From contig OY762069.1 in the NCBI GenBank assembly GCA_963665095.1, forward strand, positions 288,001 to 352,000: a stretch of DNA of 64,000 nucleotides. Direction: 5' to 3'. Shown one piece after another: positions 40,151-51,248 of this stretch; position 1 is the stretch's first letter; each line of letters begins with the position of its first letter. This DNA comes from an uncultured Desulfobacter sp. GTDB lineage: Bacteria > Desulfobacterota > Desulfobacteria > Desulfobacterales > Desulfobacteraceae. Made by a program: the position numbers and the translations under genes. The notes below the pieces were generated by a model. The model made no database searches. It was not told the DNA's origin and was given only the letters and a program-made list of their open reading frames with translations.

Positions 40151-41056
40151 GCAAATCAAAACTGTTATATTTTTACGTATACTTGCAGCCATTGACTTAA
40201 TTTTCAGTGGCTGCAGTCTCTTTTAGCAACCACTGAAACGATGTAAAATAAAATCGTCAATTACCTGGGGAATCGAAATTTTTCGAGTAAATTTGAAACG
40301 CCAGTAAGGGGTTGACTATATAGACATATCTGTCGCTTTGCTATTCCTCAGAAATATCATTATCCGGATAATATTTTTCCAAACAGTCGTCGCATATCCC
40401 GTGACTGAACTCTGCTTCAGAATGATCATGGATATAGGATTCAATCTGGGTCCAATACCCTTTATCATCACGAATTTTTTTGCAATGCGAACAGATGGGC
40501 AAAAGACCACTTAAAGTCTTAACCTTTTCCTGTGCTCTTTTAAGCGAAGTGATATCTTCTAATATTATAATGATTCCATCAAATTTGCCGCTTATATCTA
40601 AACTTTTAGAGAACTTTATGCTGTAGATAAAGGATTGTTGATTTAAGGCAATTTGTTTTTCGAATATCAATGAATCAAGATTGTTGTCTACATAATTATT
40701 AATTTCATGTTCAAGCCACGGCAAAAGTTCAGACAGAGCTGCTCCACCAAAACATGAAGGATCTATATGCTTATCTTCATCCAGATGTTGCTCTATTTCC
40801 AACTGGCGATCTCTACTTAGACAGTAATATTGAGACCCTGGTAAAATATTTGTTTTAAATAATTCAGCAGCCAAAAGGTTCATGTTATCAATCTTTTTCG
40901 CACGATTCAGAATTATCACTGGATTTGGTATACTTTCAAATATGGTCAGATATTTATTTTTTTCATTCGTCATTGAGAGGAAGCACGATAATCAATGGAG
41001 CGACAATCAGGATAAATCAGGGAAAGGCATAACTGTATTTTCAATGATTAGCAGAT

Positions 41057-41233
41057 GTCGCTGCGCTCCGACTGATTTTATTGGGTTTTTTAAGGCATGA
41101 GCAGGAAAGCTTGAATAATACAGAAAGGGGAAGCAGGTCAACCCCGCTTCCCCCGGCGCATTATTCAATGCTACCTGCTTTTGGCTATCCCTTGCCGGGT
41201 TTCCTCCCCAGGATGTCCCGGCTCCGTTTCACC
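41057..41233 (-). ncRNA. Candidate conserved structured RNA in the downstream end of transposon A
   Basis: Strongly similar to 45291-45460 in the divergent transposon B; multi-stem fold with G-U pairs on the minus strand and a compensatory pair. Confidence 0.55.
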
Positions 41234-41413
41234 AAAACCATAAAATTCATTTTCTCTTTGTTCCTCTTGTTTGATCTCCAGCAATTCTGTCAAAAGATGA
41301 TTTTCCGAGTTTATTTTTTTTAAACTGACAAGGATCAACTCCATGACCAGATTGCCCAGCTCGTCGACAATTTCAGCCATTGTTTTTTCAAGTTGTGTTT
41401 CATTGATTGTCAT
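41171..41413 (-). CDS. Small hypothetical ORF in transposon A
   Basis: GAGG RBS just after the ATPase stop; 3' end overlaps the conserved structured segment; absent from transposon B. Confidence 0.5.
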   Translation of the reverse strand: MTINETQLEKTMAEIVDELGNLVMELILVSLKKINSENHLLTELLEIKQEEQRENEFYGFGETEPGHPGEETRQGIAKSR

Positions 41414-41424
41414 TTTTATACCTC

Positions 41425-42249
41425 TTATCTGGTTGGCGACGGTTTCAGTGAAAAAAGCTCTATGAAAAGTTTCTCATCCAGTTGCGGCAGCTCTCTTTGA
41501 ACGCCCACTTCAAGCAGTTCTGCCGACATATTATTGAGGACCCGTAAGTTTCCTGTACAGTGCTCTACCAAAGCGGTGATTAAAGGTTTTGTCATGAGTT
41601 GAGGAGCTCCGGCCTGATTTAGGCAATGCGCTATATAATCCAACAATTCTTCCCGGGTATAAGGATCCAATTTTAACCGGAACCGGAGTCGACTCCCCAG
41701 GGCTACCAATGCACTGGTTCTGAACCGTTCCGGCAGCCGGGTATCACCACAGATAATGGTGGTCAATAAATTCTGGGAGTCAAAATCCATACTGTTGAGC
41801 AACCGAAGCTCATTCAGGCATCCGGTAAGCATTTCCTGAGCCTCATCAATGAGCAGGACGGGTCTGAACAGGGTTGTTTTAATATGATTTTTCCATCGTT
41901 GCCGCAGATCTTTGAACCCTCCGTAACGGTTGGCCGGACTCAAATTGACACCAAACAGTGTCCCCATTTCCCGATAGAAATCGGCCACGCTGCTTTGGGG
42001 GCGCTCCATAACGCCGACAACGACTTCATCAAGCTTGCCAAGCTGATGGGCAATCGCCTGTAGTGTCTTGGATTTGCCAAGACCGGGTTCACCGGCGATT
42101 AATGCAAATCCACCGTTCATGGTCATATTTTCAAGGCGTGTAATAAATGCCTCCATCCGGGGTGGATGCCATAATGAGTCCACAGGAATATTTGGTAAAA
42201 AAGGATTGTACTTCAATCCATAATAAGCCAATAATCGTTTGCTGTTCAT
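41425..42249 (-). CDS. ExeA-like AAA+ ATPase (TnsC/MuB/IstB-analogous transposition helper)
   Basis: YYGLKYNPF, GEPGLGKS Walker A, LLIDEAQE Walker B; start overlaps the transposase stop (TGATG). Confidence 0.88.
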   Translation of the reverse strand: MNSKRLLAYYGLKYNPFLPNIPVDSLWHPPRMEAFITRLENMTMNGGFALIAGEPGLGKSKTLQAIAHQLGKLDEVVVGVMERPQSSVADFYREMGTLFGVNLSPANRYGGFKDLRQRWKNHIKTTLFRPVLLIDEAQEMLTGCLNELRLLNSMDFDSQNLLTTIICGDTRLPERFRTSALVALGSRLRFRLKLDPYTREELLDYIAHCLNQAGAPQLMTKPLITALVEHCTGNLRVLNNMSAELLEVGVQRELPQLDEKLFIELFSLKPSPTR

Positions 42250-43694
42250 CACTTTTCCTCCATTGGCAAGTAGGCACAAGGCATTCCGGTTGCTGCATAA
42301 TCGGACAAGAGCTTTTTAAGCAGGGCCGGTTCTGATCCGGACAGGGTTTCATGGCCAGGGTTAATTTCATCCGGAGTGGATTTGATACGACGGATTGCTG
42401 AAGCATTCTTTGTCTTGTCCTGGGGATAAATTGCGGCAAGCTTATTTCCGGTTCGTTTATCTATCAGCCAGGCAACCGATTTATCCCAGGAGCAAAAACA
42501 GACATGAAGACGCTGGATATGATTAAACCGTGAAGGGATTTCAAACCGGATGCCCATCAAAGAGATGGTACCATCGGACAGACGCTGTTTTCTGGATTCA
42601 CAGGCTGTAAACGAAAATTGAAGCTGTTCAGGTTCCGGTGCAGGACGTGACACATCCTTGCCGTCAAGGGCGCATTGCAATGGCGACATATGAATTTCAT
42701 CATGGGTTGACTTGTTGTATTCCATCTCGATCCAGGCCTGGGAGACCTGATTTAAATATACCAGGGTCAAAGAATCCATCCGGCTCAGCATGGCGATCAA
42801 ACGGCCTTCAAGTGTACCCCAAAAGGCTTCCTGCTTCCCATTTTGATAGGGCGAGTATGGCAACGTGGTCTCATGACTGACGCCCAATCGTTTAAGTCCG
42901 TTGCCGGTTTCATGAGCAATCATGGCAGAACCATTATCTGTCATCAAGGCTCTGGGAAGCCCTCTTTTGTAAAACGCCTGGGACAAGCCGTGGATCAAAA
43001 CCTCTGCCGTTTCATTCAAATACCATTGAATATGACAACACAGACGGGAGCGATCATCAAGAATGCACAATGCCTTGGGCGTATGCCACTGACCTTTTTC
43101 GTCCACCACGCGCCTGCTGCATTCGTGAAAGTCCAGATGCCATAATTCATGGATGTTTTCGGTTTCATAACTACGGACTTCATACGTTTCTAATCGCTTA
43201 AAAGCTGATTTCTGTCCGGATGTTTGATTTTTGTTCTTGGAAGCCTTTTTTCTCCAACCCCGTTCAACCATACGCCTTCTCACACTTGCATAGGACGGCG
43301 GATTCTCACACAGGCCCTGTTCAGCGATTTCAGCTGCCAGGTTGTCGCAATGAAGCTGATAGCTCCATTGCGGATAAGTGTTGTACTGGACACCAAGAAG
43401 GCGGATCAATTCAGCATTCAATGCTGTGGATTTGCCCATATCTGAACGAACTTTACGGCCCAGAGCCAGAATTGGGTCCTGGCAATTTTTTGCCCTGTAA
43501 TACCAGGCCTCAATTGTGGAAAAATGAAAACAGGTCGGTTTGTTCGTCACAGGATGAGAATAGATTTGACCTGCGAGCCGGGTCAGTTCATTTTGCAACT
43601 CTCCCTTTGCCGGAGGGCGTGCCAGTAAACCGCCGATAACCGAAAAGCGAAATAATGCCCACAGGTCTGCCGGGTGCTGTGTTTTACCACTCAT
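42249..43694 (-). CDS. DDE transposase (rve core, Mu/IS481-like)
   Basis: WHLDFH, ILDDRSR, TDNGSAM and PYSPYQNGKQEAFW motifs; C-terminal Mu-like beta domain. Confidence 0.9.
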   Translation of the reverse strand: MSGKTQHPADLWALFRFSVIGGLLARPPAKGELQNELTRLAGQIYSHPVTNKPTCFHFSTIEAWYYRAKNCQDPILALGRKVRSDMGKSTALNAELIRLLGVQYNTYPQWSYQLHCDNLAAEIAEQGLCENPPSYASVRRRMVERGWRKKASKNKNQTSGQKSAFKRLETYEVRSYETENIHELWHLDFHECSRRVVDEKGQWHTPKALCILDDRSRLCCHIQWYLNETAEVLIHGLSQAFYKRGLPRALMTDNGSAMIAHETGNGLKRLGVSHETTLPYSPYQNGKQEAFWGTLEGRLIAMLSRMDSLTLVYLNQVSQAWIEMEYNKSTHDEIHMSPLQCALDGKDVSRPAPEPEQLQFSFTACESRKQRLSDGTISLMGIRFEIPSRFNHIQRLHVCFCSWDKSVAWLIDKRTGNKLAAIYPQDKTKNASAIRRIKSTPDEINPGHETLSGSEPALLKKLLSDYAATGMPCAYLPMEEK

Positions 43695-43800
43695 AAATCA
43701 GGCTCCTTTTTAATTTCAGGTTAAAATTTCGGATCAACGTCTGAAATCAGGTGGTAAAACAGCCTGCATATATTTGTCTATGTTCATCCTCTGCGCGAGA

Positions 43801-44376
43801 TTATCCGGCCCTGATTTTGGACCCGCCTGATAAGATTATCAGGCTTGATACAAGTGCGTTTTCGGCGTTGGATTTCACCGCCCGGCAATAATTGATGAAA
43901 CTTGACGGCAGACGGCTGTTACTGACACCAGCGGATATCTGCCCCCGAAGCCTTCGCCAGGTTCGGCTCACTGGAAATGTATCCTGAAAAAAGGCAAGCC
44001 AGCGGTTTATTGTGTTCCGGCTAATGCCAGTTCGTATGGACAAATCATAAACGGTGATTTTTTCATTGGTATTTTGCCAGTCTGTTAAAACACACAGAAT
44101 AACTGCAAACCAGTAGACTTTTCTCCCCAGAAAACGGCAGGACGGCGGCATCAATCTTTTGCGACACCCTTCGGTTCCACAACATAGGCTGAACTGAATA
44201 AAGAATTCCTCCGGCACGCCCTCAGGCTCTCCCCGGGGCTTGCGCATGTAATTGCTGAAATATAAGGGGCCTCCACAATGCGGACAAGGCAACTGTCTGT
44301 ACTGTTTTGCTGTATTTTTATCGATTTCGTAAAGATGGAAAAAAAGATTTTTGTTTTTAATAAGTTCTGATAGCAT
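43801..44376 (-). CDS. Zn-finger + HTH accessory protein (DUF6431-like) of transposon A
   Basis: CPHCGG..LCCGTEGCRKR and ISRNTINRW; AGGAG RBS; family assignment tentative. Confidence 0.7.
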   Translation of the reverse strand: MLSELIKNKNLFFHLYEIDKNTAKQYRQLPCPHCGGPLYFSNYMRKPRGEPEGVPEEFFIQFSLCCGTEGCRKRLMPPSCRFLGRKVYWFAVILCVLTDWQNTNEKITVYDLSIRTGISRNTINRWLAFFQDTFPVSRTWRRLRGQISAGVSNSRLPSSFINYCRAVKSNAENALVSSLIILSGGSKIRAG

Positions 44377-45290
44377 ATCTCCTGCCCTGTTAGGGTAATA
44401 GGGGCAGAAGTTCCATTGATTATTTGCGAGATAAACGGGGGAGCTTCTGCCTCATCCCTGGCATATCTTGCAAATTATCTTTAATTTTTCCATGATTTTT
44501 TGTGATCATTCTCAGTCATCATTCGATTATTGATTTGAAGTTCCAGGATGGCATTATCACCTTTCGAACCTGACCACTCCACACAAAAGCCAATCTCAAT
44601 GCGATCAAATATCCTGTTTAAAAATAATTCATAATCCCTAAGGACGGTCCGATCCGTTATTTTATCGTGGATTAAATCAATATAGGACTGTCGATAATAC
44701 TTCATTAACCCAAGAAACATGTTTAGACTAACTCCTCTTTCTCTATGTTTTTGTGCTTCAACAATGCCAAACATAGCGATTGGGTCATCATTCCTATCTT
44801 CTTCTGGGGTTAATTCTGGAGCAGTCGTATTTGCTTTAAGCCCTTGTAGAATGGAGCCAGTTAAGCCTGATATCGATAGTCGCCAAGCTTCCTTTAAAGT
44901 TGACGTGTAAGCTGAATACCCTTGCTTTAATGCATACTCAAGTATTCTGCTCATCAACCATTCTTCATTGTCTATGAAGATTGACTCTAATAGTTTATAT
45001 TTTGATTGTTCATTTTCATGTTGTGTTTTTTTCATACTTCTTATTTTACACAAACCAACGCTGAAAAACAATAATCCAAAAACTCAGCTAATAAGAACCC
45101 ATAAATAATGGTATTTAAGAACTCCTAAGCCTATTTTGAGGCGGCGGTCATTATTTTTGTTATTGGTGACATATATCGAAAATCTGGAAGATCAAATCAA
45201 TGTGTTGAGTCGCATTTTATCCTGACTTAAATTTTCTAATTATTTTGAACAGATTAAATCTTTTCCATATTATTTAAGACAGCTACAGAA

Positions 45291-45460
45291 GTCGCTGCGC
45301 TCCTTCTCAGTAGGTTTTTAAGGCATAGGCAGAACAGCTTGAATAAAGCAGAAAGGGGAAGCAGGTAATCCCCACTTCCCCTGGCGCATTATTCAATGCT
45401 GCCTGCTTCCGGCTATCCCTTACCAGGTTGCTCCTCAGCAGAGCCCGGCTCCGTTTCACC
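45291..45460 (-). ncRNA. Candidate conserved structured RNA in the downstream end of transposon B
   Basis: Homologous to 41057-41233; no ORF with a start codon here; same stems preserved by wobble or compensatory changes. Confidence 0.55.
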
Positions 45461-45495
45461 GAAATCGTAATATTCTGCTCTATGGCTGTTTTTTC

Positions 45496-46305
45496 TTAAA
45501 AAATCTCCGATGAAGCAATGCGGACATGCTCTGCAGATACCGTCATTGATTTTTCTGCCGCAGCAGCAATCAATGAGCCTCTGGCAAGATTATTCGCCTT
45601 TCGTAAAAGGCCGCCGGAGCCTTGATGAATCGCAGTCACCGCCTGGTCAGAAAAAAAGTTGGTGTCAACACCGCATAGTTTTAAATGATGGATCAGGTAA
45701 GTTTTCATTCCAGCCACATCCAGACCATCCAGATGGCTTTTAGCCACAATCCTGGATGCAAACGGGATTGACGTCCGGTACTGAAGCTTATCTATCAATG
45801 TCGGCTGACCTGCAAGGATCACAGGCAGCCAGGGCATGGCGTCTTTTTCAAATTGAACCAGGGTGTGAAGTTCGGCAAAGACTTCCATGCGAAGCAGAGA
45901 TGCCTCATCTATAATCAAAACGGTTTTGATCTTTTTTCCCAGGACGAATTCACGTATTTCATTTTTAATAATGGAGATCATAACAGCGCGGGACGTCGAT
46001 GTCCGCTCTATGCCCAGTTCTTCAACAATCTGCCGGTAAAGTTCCATGATGGAACCGCTTGAGGCCGTAACATAAAAGACTTTGTATTCCGAAGGGTGTA
46101 GGGATGAGGCGGCATACCTTAAGGCGGTGGACTTTCCGCTGCCCACATCCCCTGTGATAACCGCACTGCAGCCAAGTCTTAAGGAATAATCAATCCGATT
46201 TTTAACGCCCGAGACCTCCGGGGTGACCAGGATATCATTGATTTCTATCTGTGCCGGGAAGGCCTCCCTATATAAGCCAAAAAAGGTACGATACATTTCA
46301 CTCAT
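45496..46305 (-). CDS. ExeA-like AAA+ ATPase of transposon B
   Basis: YRTFFGL..AF, GDVGSGKS, VLIIDEA and ILAGQP motifs; ATGA overlap with the transposase. Confidence 0.88.
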   Translation of the reverse strand: MSEMYRTFFGLYREAFPAQIEINDILVTPEVSGVKNRIDYSLRLGCSAVITGDVGSGKSTALRYAASSLHPSEYKVFYVTASSGSIMELYRQIVEELGIERTSTSRAVMISIIKNEIREFVLGKKIKTVLIIDEASLLRMEVFAELHTLVQFEKDAMPWLPVILAGQPTLIDKLQYRTSIPFASRIVAKSHLDGLDVAGMKTYLIHHLKLCGVDTNFFSDQAVTAIHQGSGGLLRKANNLARGSLIAAAAEKSMTVSAEHVRIASSEIF

Positions 46306-47558
46306 AACAGTTGCCCTCCCTTGTAATTTGAGGGTTCAGGCATAATCCGGATATCATTTTCGTTCCAGCGGTGCCGCTTGACCCGACAGTTCACAGCAAG
46401 GTCCACCGGGGTTAACAAGCCATAAGACTTTGCTTTATAGATAACTTCAGCCTGCAAAGGGGTGTCCTCATGGTACTTTACATCCACATGTCTGCCGATC
46501 AGCGCAACCGGGGCCTCAAACATGTTGCCGTCAAGGGTTATGGTTCGGTCCTTTGCCACCTTGCGCCGGGCGGTTTTGCGGAAGTGGTCTTTCAGATCCG
46601 GTGGGGCGGTACGGATGCACTCCATGGCCGAGGTAAATCTTTTAAACGGTGATTCGCCTGTGGAGCTGTGTTTACGCTGATGGTACTCATTATGAAGCCA
46701 CTTCTCAAATGCCCCATTCAGATCATCCAGGGTCTTACCTGTAAATCTTTGCAGAAACTGAAGCCGAACCGTTCTGAACCAGCGCTCGATTTTACCTTTC
46801 CCCTGGGGCTTATATGGCCTTGCATGGATTAAAGCGATGGACAGAGACGCTGCTACATATTTTAAATGATGGGATCTGAACGCAGGACCGTTATCTACAT
46901 ACAGCTTGCGGGGAAGCCCACGGCTCAAAAAAGCCTGCTCCAGCACCATAAGATAGGTCTTCAGATTCTCAGATAAATAAAAACCTGCAGCCGTAACCAG
47001 CCTGGAATGATCGTCCATAATGGCAATCAGGTACGTTTTTCTTTGCTTATCCTGAACCAGGACTGTAGGGCCGTGCATGACGTCGCTTTGCCACATATCA
47101 TTGGGGTGCGGGGCTTCAAACTTTCTTCTATCCTCTGGCCGGGCCGTGTTCATTAGCCCCCGGCCGCGTAAAAAACGGTATACACTGGATGGACTGTATG
47201 TCTGGCATGTAGTTTTTTGAAGTGAACAGATCAATGTATCGACTGTCGCATCAGGCTGGTCTAACCGGAGTTTGATTAGTTGAGATGCAGTCTCGTCATC
47301 GAATACCCTTGATTTTCCCTGGTCTGAACGGTCTTTGGGGTAAAGAGACTCTATTCGACCGTTATACTGCCGGACCCATCCCAGAATCGTACTTCTGGAA
47401 AGCCTGGTCCTTCCAGAATACGGGATGGACCATTTGCGGGCGCACTTCTGCTGTAAAATTCGTTCTTTTTCACCGTAATCAAAATTTGTTCCGGTCACAA
47501 ATTCACAAATGACCCCAAACCTGAACACGGCAACCTCTTTTTTCTGATTTTCTGTCAT
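46302..47558 (-). CDS. DDE transposase (rve core, Mu/IS481-like)
   Basis: WQSDVMHGP, IMDDHSR, YVDNGPAF and PYKPQGKGKIERWF motifs. Confidence 0.9.
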   Translation of the reverse strand: MTENQKKEVAVFRFGVICEFVTGTNFDYGEKERILQQKCARKWSIPYSGRTRLSRSTILGWVRQYNGRIESLYPKDRSDQGKSRVFDDETASQLIKLRLDQPDATVDTLICSLQKTTCQTYSPSSVYRFLRGRGLMNTARPEDRRKFEAPHPNDMWQSDVMHGPTVLVQDKQRKTYLIAIMDDHSRLVTAAGFYLSENLKTYLMVLEQAFLSRGLPRKLYVDNGPAFRSHHLKYVAASLSIALIHARPYKPQGKGKIERWFRTVRLQFLQRFTGKTLDDLNGAFEKWLHNEYHQRKHSSTGESPFKRFTSAMECIRTAPPDLKDHFRKTARRKVAKDRTITLDGNMFEAPVALIGRHVDVKYHEDTPLQAEVIYKAKSYGLLTPVDLAVNCRVKRHRWNENDIRIMPEPSNYKGGQLL

Positions 47559-47661
47559 ACTTCCTCCTTAAAATTTGGTTCTAAGGGCTTGTATGACAGT
47601 ATGATCCTTCGGTAAATCACAGCCTTCGGTAGGGTGGTTTAACCCTGATCCAGCCCCATGG

Positions 47662-48108
47662 TTAAATTGAACTAGTAACCGGGATTTTACCCATACCGAT
47701 TAGCTTGATAAAACCAGCAACCACACCTTTGTCCCAACTGTTGGACAGGTAGGCCGCTATATTTCGTTTCAATGCAGTAAACCAAAAATGCTGTCGACTC
47801 CAGGAGAGTTCCGGCAGATACCGGTCTGTGTATAGACGACTCATAATGCTGGTAAGGATTTGCCAGATACTGGCCTGGAACCTCTTGAAAAAACCATATG
47901 GCTTCAATTTGAATACGGTTTTGCAATAGGGGCAGCGATATCGCTTCAAATACACCCCTTGATCAAATCCATCAAAAAAGGAGAGTACAAAGCCGTGTCC
48001 CCACAGCCTGGAGTCGTTGCAATGTGGACATCGTGACGGTTTTGGCCATGTAAAATTTTTGCCCTGCTTGAAAATTTGCTTGATATCAGCTTTGACCTTT
48101 ATTATCAT
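47662..48108 (-). CDS. Zn-finger accessory protein (DUF6431-like) of transposon B
   Basis: CPHC..LWGHG..RYRCPYCK; same position as the Zn-finger ORF of transposon A; family assignment tentative. Confidence 0.7.
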   Translation of the reverse strand: MIIKVKADIKQIFKQGKNFTWPKPSRCPHCNDSRLWGHGFVLSFFDGFDQGVYLKRYRCPYCKTVFKLKPYGFFKRFQASIWQILTSIMSRLYTDRYLPELSWSRQHFWFTALKRNIAAYLSNSWDKGVVAGFIKLIGMGKIPVTSSI

Positions 48109-48459
48109 TTTTATGGTTGTTTTGGGATTTTATAAATCCCGGTCTTAAGGGCGAGGCTCTGCAAAGCTTTTCGCCCTTTTCATTTTTGTCAGAATGCTTT
48201 GATCAGAACCTGTACAGGATAATTTGAGAAAAATGGAACTTTGTCAATTTAATATGAAAAATTTGGCGGGTTTTTGTTCAGGTTATTTCGGGAATCTACA
48301 AATGGATCTTAGGTGAAGACTACCCCAAGACAAGTACCTATCCCTGTCAATATTTTTTCAGGACTCTTATGGAAAAATTGGATTTGGATCTGATCAGGTT
48401 AGCGTTACACAAAGGGAAATAAAGAGGCCTGTCATATATCACTTGCTTTAAAATAAATT

Positions 48460-48740
48460 TTATGGCCTTTTTTGTGGATCCTGCCGATTATCGAAAACCG
48501 AATGAATTATAATTTCAAAATTTTCAATCGTATAAAAAATAGAAAAGGGGAAACGTCGGATCGGGCAGCCCCGGAAATGTGAATACCTTTTTTGATACAT
48601 CTTTGGGTTTTTTGAAATGTTTTTACTGCAGCTTCAACACAGTCCAGAAAGTCTGACCCCAATCCTCTTTTTTGCTCTTCGTACCATAAAATCCCCAGGT
48701 CGATTTCAGTCAACGCACGGTCAGTATAACGGGTGATCAT
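48460..48740 (-). pseudogene. RelE/ParE-family toxin with single-base frameshift
   Basis: WYEEQKRGLGSDF N-terminus; adding one A in the run at 48620-48624 gives ..NPKMYQKRYSHFRGCPIRRFPFSIFY..HSVFDNRQDP*. Confidence 0.8.
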
Positions 48741-48970
48741 TTGAATCCGTACTTTGTCCTTAACTCATCGTGAACGGACTGGCAGTCATAGGTTTTTAGT
48801 TTGCCTGCTTTGTATTCGACATATCTTTTGTCAAGCTCTTGTTTTTGCCATTCCGGCAATGGATGATTGCCAGTTTCCTGGGCTATGGAATCCCATATAT
48901 CGTTTACTAACAGCAGCTTTTCAGAAAAATTAAGTTTATCAATTTCCTGTCTTATTTTTTCCTGTCCCAT
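48737..48970 (-). CDS. Addiction-module antitoxin (TIGR02574-like)
   Basis: EKLLLVNDIWDSI..LPEWQKQELDKR motif; GGAGG RBS; ATGA overlap with the toxin. Confidence 0.85.
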   Translation of the reverse strand: MGQEKIRQEIDKLNFSEKLLLVNDIWDSIAQETGNHPLPEWQKQELDKRYVEYKAGKLKTYDCQSVHDELRTKYGFK

Positions 48971-49333: not shown

Positions 49334-51248
49334 GTGCGCCACGAGGGCGCAGGATACCAGCGGATGAAAGTTCCGCCCGGGAAATTATCGGTTCATCCCG
49401 GTAGCGACCCAGACAGTGGGATAGGGAGACCTTCCTGCTGAAGCTCTGGGGACAGATGTAAGCCTATAGGGCTGCAGCAACCTGGCAGGCCGCAACGTGA
49501 GTGAACCTTGAGCAGGCCTCGAAAGGACAGTCGTGGATGCCGACCCGCCCAACATTCGGGGAAGGCCGAAGCGGAACGGGGATGTAACCGATCCACTCGT
49601 TTCGATCCACCGGGGTAATGAGGGCAGCATGCCAGGAAGGTATTCTGGGTAACGTGGGAGACCCGTCCCGAATGCGGAGTAGTGACCCGCAACAATCCAT
49701 TCGTGAATTGGTTCGGGCGGGAGTCGGAGAGGGCAATAGTACCGATGATTCCGGGTAATGCCGGTTGAGGGAAGTGCCCTTACTTCTGATGTTCTTTTGA
49801 AAGAAATGAGATGAGGTGATTGGCTATGGGCCTAGAAACACCAAACAGGATTCGGACTTTCCAGAGAAAGATTTACCTTAAGGCGAAGTCGGAACCGGAC
49901 TATCGATTTTATCTTCTTTATGACAAGATATATCGACCCGACATCCTTTTACATGCCTATTTGTCGGCAAAGCTGAATAAAGGCTCGGCCGGAGTAGATG
50001 GGGTAACCTTCAAACAAATTGAAGAGAAGGGGCTCGGAGAATGGTTGTCCGGGATCAGAAATGAATTACGTGAAAAGACATACAAGCCACAGCCTGTTTT
50101 ACGTGTAATGATCCCAAAACCAAATGGGGGGAGTCGTCCGCTTGGGATTCCTACCATAAGGGACAGGGTAGTTCAAACCGCAACCAAACTGGTCATAGAG
50201 CCTATATTTGAAGCAGATCTTGAGCCCAATACATTCGGCTATCGTCCAAAACGCAGTGCTTTGGATGCCATCCAAATGGTCCACCAATTGCTTTGCCAGG
50301 GTTACACCGATGTTGTTGATGCGGACTTGTCCAAGTATTTTGACACGATTCCACACAGCGAATTGATCAAGTGTGTAAGCCGCAGGATTGTGGATCGTAA
50401 TGTGCTCAGGCTGATTAAATTATGGCTCAAAGTGCCGGTAGAGAAGCGGGATAAAGATGGCCGGGGGCAAATGAGCGGCGGCCGGAAGAATCAACAAGGA
50501 ACGCCGCAAGGAGGCGTTATCAGCCCTCTGCTGGCCAATATATACATGAATCGATTTCTGAAATACTGGCGGATCAAAGGATGCAATGAAATCTTCCGTG
50601 CTCGGATTGTCTCATATGCGGATGATTTCGTTATCCTGAGCCGAGGCAGGGCGTCAGATGCGTTGAATCTGACCGATGCCGTTATGACGCGACTTGGACT
50701 CAAATTGAATCAGGACAAGACCGTCATTGTAAATGCCCAAAACGGGGATTTTGATTTTCTCGGCTATACCTTTGGGCAGATCTGGTTTCGGAAAACAGGA
50801 AGAAGGTATATGGGGGCAAGTCCATCAAAGAAGAGCGTGAAACGGTTGAAACAGAAGGTGAGAACTATTCTGCGCCCTGGTGAGAAGGGCGCATGGCCGG
50901 ATGTTAGAGATCGGCTGAACGACCTATTGCAGGGTTGGAGTGCTTACTTCTGTTACGGCACGACCCAGATAGCCTATCGTGCTGTTGAACGGCATGTCTA
51001 TAATCGCGTCAGACGTTTTCTGGTCAGTCGGCACAAAGTGCGTTCACAAGGCATACGCCGGTTTCCATCACAGAGAGTATTTGGTGAACTTGGGGTACTC
51101 TTACCGAGACCGATGAAACGTACCGTACGACGTGTGCCTTAAGGTGAAGTCAGTCGGAAAGCCGGATGCGGTAGCACCGCACGTCCGGTTTGATGAGCAG
51201 GGGCAGGAAACGGAACGGATTTGTCACCGCGCTTGCCCTTGACTCTAC
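49334..51248 (+). mobile_element. Group II intron (bacterial IIB-like, no endonuclease domain)
   Basis: 5' GTGCG; domain V AAGCCGGATGCG..CGCACGTCCGGTTT at 51159-51191; 3' end GACTCTAC; flanks rejoin to match the uninterrupted repeat at about 26965-26990. Confidence 0.92.
49820..51142 (+). CDS. ltrA: Group II intron reverse transcriptase/maturase
   Basis: AGVDG, RPLGIPTIRDR, GTPQGGVISPLLAN, YADD and FDFLG motifs; maturase X domain; no HNH. Confidence 0.95.
   Translation: MAMGLETPNRIRTFQRKIYLKAKSEPDYRFYLLYDKIYRPDILLHAYLSAKLNKGSAGVDGVTFKQIEEKGLGEWLSGIRNELREKTYKPQPVLRVMIPKPNGGSRPLGIPTIRDRVVQTATKLVIEPIFEADLEPNTFGYRPKRSALDAIQMVHQLLCQGYTDVVDADLSKYFDTIPHSELIKCVSRRIVDRNVLRLIKLWLKVPVEKRDKDGRGQMSGGRKNQQGTPQGGVISPLLANIYMNRFLKYWRIKGCNEIFRARIVSYADDFVILSRGRASDALNLTDAVMTRLGLKLNQDKTVIVNAQNGDFDFLGYTFGQIWFRKTGRRYMGASPSKKSVKRLKQKVRTILRPGEKGAWPDVRDRLNDLLQGWSAYFCYGTTQIAYRAVERHVYNRVRRFLVSRHKVRSQGIRRFPSQRVFGELGVLLPRPMKRTVRRVP

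Follow-up and report, generated by a model that had tools for sequence, protein, structure and literature searches.

Why should two neighbouring transposons that have diverged widely in their proteins share one well-conserved segment? The question is raised by a 64,000-nt stretch of DNA (the window) from an uncultured Desulfobacter sp. (assembly GCA_963665095.1, contig OY762069.1, positions 288,001 to 352,000), in which elements A and B each encode a zinc (Zn)-finger-like protein, a DDE transposase and an ATPase on the minus strand, and in which an earlier note, made from the sequence alone, proposed a conserved structured element at the downstream end of both. The two segments are indeed 80.2% identical across a 197-nt stretch 3' of the ATPase gene, against 27.6% for the transposases, 22.6% for the ATPases and Zn-finger open reading frames (ORFs) that do not align; all 27 genomic matches to the segment fall inside copies of A or B. 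From comparative analysis we conclude that the segment is a real structured RNA of ~155 nt on the minus strand, predicted to form six helices (P1-P6) and two pseudoknots (PK1 and PK2). Tentatively, at a little under an even chance, we propose that it serves to prime DNA synthesis when the element transposes replicatively, as an RNA module that resembles ColE1 RNA II by analogy and not by homology. The predicted parts of the two window copies are as follows.

41083..41237 (-), structured RNA, copy A, model score 127.6 bits
41231-41237/41179-41185, P1 of RNA A; 41226-41229, its conserved AAAC linker
41217-41222/41194-41199, P2 of RNA A; 41210-41212/41203-41205, P3
41206-41209 (loop) with 41083-41085, PK1 of RNA A; 41186-41192 with 41093-41098, PK2
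41174-41178/41101-41105, P4 of RNA A; 41161-41168/41111-41118, P5; 41127-41154, P6
41086-41091, A-run of RNA A
45312..45464 (-), structured RNA, copy B, model score 126.1 bits
45458-45464/45407-45413, P1 of RNA B; 45444-45449/45422-45427, P2; 45437-45439/45430-45432, P3
45433-45435/45312-45314, PK1 of RNA B; 45414-45420/45321-45326, PK2
45402-45406/45329-45333, P4 of RNA B; 45389-45396/45339-45346, P5; 45355-45382, P6

The A and B segments each out-fold 200 of 200 shuffles (z = -4.66 and -4.07, respectively). In anchored pair counts over 103 copies (all <90% identity), for which the pattern left the 4-nt loop free, pairing of that loop with the RNA 3' end (PK1; GGG/CCC in A, AGG/CCU in B) holds in 100 and 97 of the 103 copies at two positions, and takes G-C, A-U and C-G forms. 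The covariance-model alignment of 99 hits has 90.7% of its cells paired, compared with 63.5% when shuffled and at most 50.1% when slid, a figure tempered by the alignment being fitted to the structure. A tree-aware G-test made for this study (40 null alignments, E <= 0.05) was applied to 90 rows, namely the 99 minus four partial and five near-duplicate sequences, and found 23 covarying base pairs, all within P1-P6 or PK1; PK2 is supported by near-invariant bases and one compensated case (L189). The four stems and the substitutions that the earlier note had read from A and B are all present in the alignment of the two, and its fold is supported, but it missed P1 and PK1, and its closing AAGG/CCUU helix is better described as PK2.

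AAAC accompanies AGGGAUA in nearly all copies, and AAGC accompanies AGGAAUA in nine (L014, L202, L203, L206, L214, L335, L350, L351 and L353). This joint swap of the third base of AAAC and the fourth base of AGGGAUA, spread over at least three phyla-level groups and with one exception (L122), makes a tertiary contact between them likely. By eye, many copies also have a short local hairpin at the P4-P5 junction (in A, 41169-41172 with 41158-41160), which suggests a folding intermediate or a third pseudoknot, competing with P5 or stacking on it. Within the helices of the 90-row alignment G-U pairs outnumber A-C mismatches 227 to 78, and cUUCGg occurs in 9 of the 103 copies against 2% of shuffles; both favour RNA on the minus (transposase) strand, as had been proposed.

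The fold is new by the comparisons made here, absent from Rfam 15 as well as strongly covarying and widespread. In the window the sole Rfam 15 match was a group II intron, with none on the RNA; 16 loci searched at E <= 5 gave nothing on it, and 12 divergent loci at E <= 2 gave one overlap, L20_leader, at 24.3 bits against the 58.7 required. The riboswitch, ribozyme, HEARO, RAGATH and transposase-motif families of Rfam 15 never reached their gathering scores. No description of the RNA, its motifs or elements of the A and B types was found in full-text searches of the literature, though the supplements of motif surveys (PMC5737381 among them) could hold an unlisted motif. P6 is followed by at least five U in 51 of the 103 copies, and P6 of A scores as a terminator; an intrinsic terminator fits P6 alone, leaving P1-P5 and the pseudoknots unaccounted for, and so does not explain the segment.

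Within the order, blastn detected the RNA in 38 of 301 genomes, and a pattern scan that took a single genome for each species gave at least 118 loci; among the matches listed are Desulfobacterales and relatives, Planctomycetota, Bacteroidota, Verrucomicrobiota, Acidobacteriota, Armatimonadota, Nitrospirales and others. Samples of 151 genomes from each of three phyla, with 18 candidates scored per genome, had matches in 3, 8 and 15 genomes, several of the weak ones proving false on inspection. A context survey of 80 loci with wide flanks yielded 69 distinct copies, of which 57 have a transposition gene no more than 450 nt away, in eight element types and several phyla and in either orientation. 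Twenty-four are in sense orientation behind the last ORF (13 in ExeA-type elements, 6 in insertion sequences (ISs) of family IS3 and 5 of IS110), 32 are antisense and convergent (15 in a zinc variant of IS256, 9 IS3, 3 IS110, 3 IS21, 1 ISNCY and 1 IS1634), and one is divergent at the left end of an ISL3 element; the rest are on short contigs (six) or have no transposition-gene neighbour (six). Among the copies beside non-ExeA elements, 42 of 44 belong to IS3, IS256, IS110, IS21 or ISL3. For 21 of the 80 labelled copies the closest relative sits in a different element family, and all 11 IS256-variant loci (Chitinophagales-order) carry the RNA, 10 in full and one as a half. The eight element types, the cross-family nearest relatives and the own promoter that some copies have (below) thus point to a portable module that is not part of one transposase system. 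Its occurrence does not depend on the type of transposase, on orientation or on which end of the element it lies at.

That spread also bears on whether the RNA might guide or target the Zn-finger/DDE/AAA machinery, a role for which the RNA-guided IS110 and IS200/IS605 systems are precedents and for which the layout of scaffold plus variable domain would be suited. We consider it very improbable: one RNA family accompanies both DDE and DEDD enzymes, whose folds are unrelated, identical RNAs are present in the 13 copies of A and the 14 of B although the target sites of these have no more in common than a brief ATGG-like preference in B, the variable part pairs with itself, and most relatives lack the RNA. 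The 27 target sites have no long consensus, no formal loop-to-target search having been made. The earlier note, too, had found guiding unsupported. A TnpB or IscB gene was found neither in the 80 neighbouring ORFs scanned nor in A or B, and no partner protein is common to all host element families. IS-borne guide RNAs (the bridge or seek RNA of IS110, the omega RNAs of TnpB and IscB, RAGATH-18) are tied to one protein family and contain target-matching segments. The RNA described here resembles them as a structured non-coding RNA near an element end, with pseudoknots and often its own promoter, but differs in being common to unrelated families, without an adjoining nuclease gene or an Rfam match.

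Several observations concern individual hosts. Eight IS110 elements (L008, L009, L012, L013, L014, L021, L035 and L072) have a second conserved structure 3' of the RNA, possibly their bridge RNA, and in L008 and L012 a 14-nt direct repeat flanks the RNA on both sides. At the end of one IS256-variant element a half RNA passes directly into an apparent CRISPR array (L331:2298-2424). The family of a protein beside L352 (L352:2306-3028), present in 7 of 301 genomes of its phylum, has a predicted fold resembling reverse transcriptases (TM 0.55-0.58); a link between it and the RNA was rejected, the RNA occurring in one of seven homologue regions and ~5 kb off, and L107, which at first seemed associated with a reverse transcriptase, belongs to an IS3 element.

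Within elements of the A and B types the RNA lies in a cargo slot behind the ATPase gene, and there it is optional. It is full in 12 of 30 loci chosen by a B-type ATPase, with a further one truncated where its contig stops, and present in 14 of 81 such loci of a larger set (two cut; plus one degenerate), the bearers being scattered over the ATPase tree. Of 17 A-type loci chosen in the same way, one without downstream DNA was dropped; in the 16 informative ones the slot holds the RNA in seven, a RepB primase gene in seven and neither in two, the two never occurring together intact (Fisher p = 0.003, overstated because the loci are kin). The earlier proposal of a dedicated fourth component of one Zn-finger + DDE + AAA family is not supported by these counts, as the RNA accompanies a minority of them (12 of 30 and 14 of 81 B-type, 7 of 17 A-type) and occurs in IS3, IS256, IS110, IS21, ISL3, ISNCY and IS1634 elements too.

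The primase assignment rests on Pfam PF16793, matched by eight of the eight ORFs scanned. Such plasmid-type enzymes (PF16793 + PF22448), for which RSF1010 RepB' and its ssi sites are the comparison, are proteins that occupy the same slot in sister elements and have been swapped with the RNA both ways. L373 (primase) and L374 (RNA), whose ATPases are 96% identical, match as far as a common hairpin, diverge, and rejoin at the last primase codons, so that L374 retains the final codons of an L373-type primase gene behind its RNA. Conversely L383 (primase), sister to L384 (RNA), retains a decayed 3' half RNA behind its primase gene. Among B-type elements, L170 (with a primase) and its sister L172 (with the RNA) make up a 100/99 pair on the tree, and element A itself, with its RNA, lies beside a primase clade. 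On these four cases we count about four independent exchanges, in both directions. No RNA match was found in four B-type primase loci or in a locus with a CHC2 zinc finger. Intact-looking RepB-type primase genes stand inside DDE + ExeA transposons at L170:2379-3179, L175, L254, L372, L375, L377, L378 and L383, and in the literature we found no description of a role for RepB primase there.

In RNA-free relatives the slot can hold a lone terminator-like hairpin, an acidic ORF of ~56 aa, a CHC2 finger or the RepB primase gene; a DnaG-type CHC2 finger (L164) and an AAA_25 protein preceding the RNA (L221) were also seen. Element A has a member of the acidic family.

41171..41413 (-), small acidic ORF of A, of the ~56-aa family, its stop lost and its frame extending ~25 codons into the RNA

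The earlier note was right that structure, not protein, accounts for the conservation of the segment, but this ORF, which it had set aside, is a real family member with a lost stop and not a chance frame. The family normally ends in a Phe like that of the tail of SSB, the protein that binds single-stranded DNA: 43 of 54 distinct small ORFs, some of them spurious or read-through frames, end in F and 14 in PF, compared with 373 and 25 among 6110 ORFs of the genome. DDDIPF forms the end of the host's own SSB, and the SSB C-terminal peptide binds DnaG and others according to PMC5872125. The small proteins are likely adaptors for host restart or priming proteins. They comprise at least two sequence types (the window ORF, L287:1657-1824 and about 50 relatives), are unannotated, and match no Pfam, NCBIfam or Atlas family.

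These ORFs coexist freely with the RNA or with the primase, so room in the slot is not limiting, which counts against reading the RNA as a passenger that displaces the primase through slot sharing only and brings some other benefit (a decoy or scaffold for host proteins, anti-defence, addiction) or is a selfish cassette. The RNA's optional, scattered occurrence on the ATPase trees and the 21 copies nearest to the RNA of another element family would suit a passenger, as would a variant without the AUGCCU strand, which occurs in plasmid-like islands and two viral contigs with no transposase alongside. Its fixation in the IS256-variant loci and the lack of a partner protein common to the host families speak against one, and we regard a passenger as unlikely. 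The islands, in a genome of the planctomycete phylum (variant at L363:5078-5224 and L364:8070-8216), contain genes that by eye are for an integrase, ParA, and Rep-like and small SSB-like proteins. Three variants of the RNA searched by blastn against 72,556 plasmids gave no match, chance matches and one 55-nt partial match (Acidisarcina plasmid); viral contigs gave none with the strict pattern and five stretches on four contigs with a looser one.

Many copies are predicted to have a promoter of their own. In IS3 and antisense copies a predicted promoter stands at one fixed distance, with +1 at P1; scored with consensus promoter motifs, it is in the top 5% at that distance in 7 of 8 IS3-sense and 4 of 6 antisense copies, and an exact TAnnTTTG is present in 10 of 19 Bacteroidota copies against a background of ~1%. 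A mini-hairpin, GCGNAGC, follows the RNA; it is the conserved 3' element of the earlier note, there as GCGCAGC but outside the RNA core.

41060..41066 (-), GCGNAGC mini-hairpin behind RNA A, with a C-GNA-G triloop
45294..45300 (-), GCGNAGC mini-hairpin behind RNA B

Triloops of the C-GNA-G kind are stable in single-stranded DNA. Among 128 distinct tails, 38 have such a hairpin on the RNA strand and 2 on the other strand, compared with 2.5% of shuffles, and the hairpins travel with the RNA, being present at 8 of 14 RNA-bearing and 2 of 40 RNA-free B-type ends.

The mini-hairpin is of DNA type, and a fold acting as single-stranded DNA, that is, as a single-strand origin on a looped-out strand seen by host RNA polymerase or primase, would account for it, for the primase swap and for the independence of orientation; comparative methods cannot fully tell single-stranded DNA from RNA, as stated in PMC5737381. 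The G-U excess and the cUUCGg loops given above point the other way, as do promoters positioned to start transcription at the first helix and the A-rich pseudoknot linkers, and we think this quite unlikely.

A ribozyme or RNA-level control element unrelated to priming (self-processing, stabilizing or antiterminating transcripts, or a stable antisense RNA) is in our judgement rather unlikely. The compact invariant core with its tertiary swap, the U-run behind P6 with the terminator score in A, and positions at operon ends or directly behind a promoter would all fit such a role, but no ribozyme or riboswitch family in Rfam matches, the primase exclusion is left unexplained, and antisense copies have no downstream gene to regulate. 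Nor is there an orientation bias with respect to interrupted host ORFs among 27 copies (10 on the same strand, 8 on the opposite strand, 9 intergenic), by which we also rejected relief of polarity through outward transcription.

Independence of family and orientation, an own promoter, a bias towards circle-forming families and exchange with a primase are most simply accounted for together if the RNA supplies or sets up a primer, and we therefore favour the priming module. The evidence points to DNA priming and not, as the earlier note had considered, to targeting or mRNA processing. IS3, IS256, IS110, IS21 and ISL3 are among the families listed as circle-forming in bioRxiv 2023.06.07.543989. 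The portable module would help an IS start DNA synthesis at the copy-out or circle-forming step, doing the job that the RepB primase does in sister elements. It would be made by transcription, which in A and B would place it at the 3' end of the operon RNA, and its own 3' portion might stay hybridized to the template and be cut by RNase H into a primer, as for ColE1 RNA II (about two thirds of the weight that we give to priming). About one third goes to the alternative that the RNA recruits primase or restart proteins of the host. On the displaced strand, the GCGNAGC hairpin could serve as a loading or priming signal.

That RNA made by host polymerase can prime DNA synthesis is described for ColE1 in PMC5043065, and PMC5778457 has restart proteins loading at a priming site formed by a hairpin as well as at forks like those of ColE1. 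The likeness to ColE1 RNA II lies in a non-coding RNA made by host RNA polymerase in place of a protein primase (PMC5043065 and PMC5935869); that the window RNA primes is our inference. ColE1 (NC_001371) has, by eye, a long hairpin, a short spacer, an A-run (1193-1197), a C-rich end and, further down the same RNA II strand, a GCGNAGC-type 7-mer (1334-1340). ColE1 RNA II is ~550 nt with its promoter ~550 bp upstream of the origin, whereas the RNA here is ~155 nt with a promoter directly before P1 (IS3 and antisense copies), ends in two 3' pseudoknots and is carried by ISs. The IEE PrimPol-helicase offers another likeness, a priming activity that acts on the same circle-forming families at a replication step, but it is a trans-acting protein encoded outside the element and promotes excision, as described in bioRxiv 2023.06.07.543989.

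A number of points weigh against priming. The homology to ColE1 RNA II suggested by eye was rejected, as two covariance models run without filters and an nhmmer profile gave no significant match on NC_001371. The RNA 3' end is locked in two pseudoknots and pyrimidine-rich, which does not favour an RNA-DNA hybrid. Own promoters are scarce in ExeA copies (2 of 36), to which those of A and B belong, and absent from IS110-sense copies (0 of 6); both kinds are presumably co-transcribed with their operon. The mini-hairpin is missing from 90 of the 128 tails, and antisense copies leave no place for it because they run into an ORF. In 40 RNA-free non-redundant B-type loci whose right end is recognizable, the slot holds a primase once, a small ORF 28 times and nothing 11 times, so that most B-type elements have neither RNA nor primase, neither is essential, and the exclusion could simply mean that the two compete for a single cargo slot. 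The primase genes of L373, L391 and L295 are themselves broken. One copy is in an IS1634 element, and the bias towards circle-forming families is one of raw counts.

It is possible, and we put this forward a little more cautiously than the priming role itself, that many IS families carry their own RNA-based origin, a double-pseudoknot RNA of 155 nt by which the copy-out primer is made or positioned and which is freely interchangeable with a protein primase. No earlier priming RNA would then be known from within a transposon, and primer supply would be shown to limit replicative transposition; priming and the handover to host enzymes in copy-out transposition are poorly known. The natural RNA/primase swaps between elements with 96% identical ATPases are ready-made paired constructs, and a 155-nt protein-free priming module would serve as a minimal replicon part. 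Even without a priming role, a mobile RNA that crosses families with an invariant core is a good candidate for a ribozyme or RNA machine.

The host elements in the window have the following parts.

40974..44514 (-), element A, 3541 bp, TG...CA ends, 13 full genomic copies, 5-bp duplication here
43801..44376 (-), Cys-rich (Zn-finger-like) ORF of A, 191 aa, with weak helix-turn-helix matches
42249..43694 (-), DDE transposase of A, 481 aa, rve domain, nearest to IS481 but below its cut-off
41425..42246 (-), ATPase of A, AAA_22 (ExeA-type)
45203..48300 (-), element B, 3098 bp, TG...CA ends, 14 genomic copies, 4-bp duplication here
47662..48108 (-), Cys-rich (Zn-finger-like) ORF of B, 148 aa
46302..47558 (-), DDE transposase of B, 418 aa, rve domain, nearest to IS481
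45496..46305 (-), ATPase of B, AAA_22 (ExeA-type)

Element A splits a PAS-domain gene (44481-45071 + 40341-40973). The limits given for both elements in the earlier note are borne out by their genomic copies (13 of A, 14 of B) and by public contigs that hold the empty sites, where the skips of 3546 and 3102 equal element plus duplication; the empty site of A is in sequencing runs X6 and X10 and that of B in X6. Contigs of four DNA runs contain no end-to-end joint of a free circle, though contigs drop rare forms, and read depth across A and B in run X2 is ~11-12 times that of the flanks, near the 13-14 genomic copies, though depth is not a copy number; for these reasons neither is counted as evidence. 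A and B resemble IS481 and IS21 in their rve-type transposase, the two-gene layout of transposase and AAA+ ATPase and the TG...CA ends, and differ from them in the extra Zn-finger gene and the cargo slot. Against the IS481 model NF033577 they score 89.9 (A) and 208.7 bits (B), with a cut-off of 224; they are likewise below the IS21 cut-off, and the helper ATPases are AAA_22 with no IstB match.

Target duplications, by exact match, differ among copies of one element within the one genome, from 3 to 7 bp for A and 4 to 5 bp for B (with one copy of each having none), and B insertions favour ATGG-like sites. One B copy in the source genome is 4417 bp long (G000:C1:1967081-1971497), with an insertion near its left end, and adjoins an A copy. 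The group II intron of the window (RF02005 match, 49367-51142) has a 440-aa reverse transcriptase ORF at 49820-51142. At 48507-48970 two 77-aa ORFs resemble, by eye, a RelE/ParE-type toxin and an addiction-module antitoxin.

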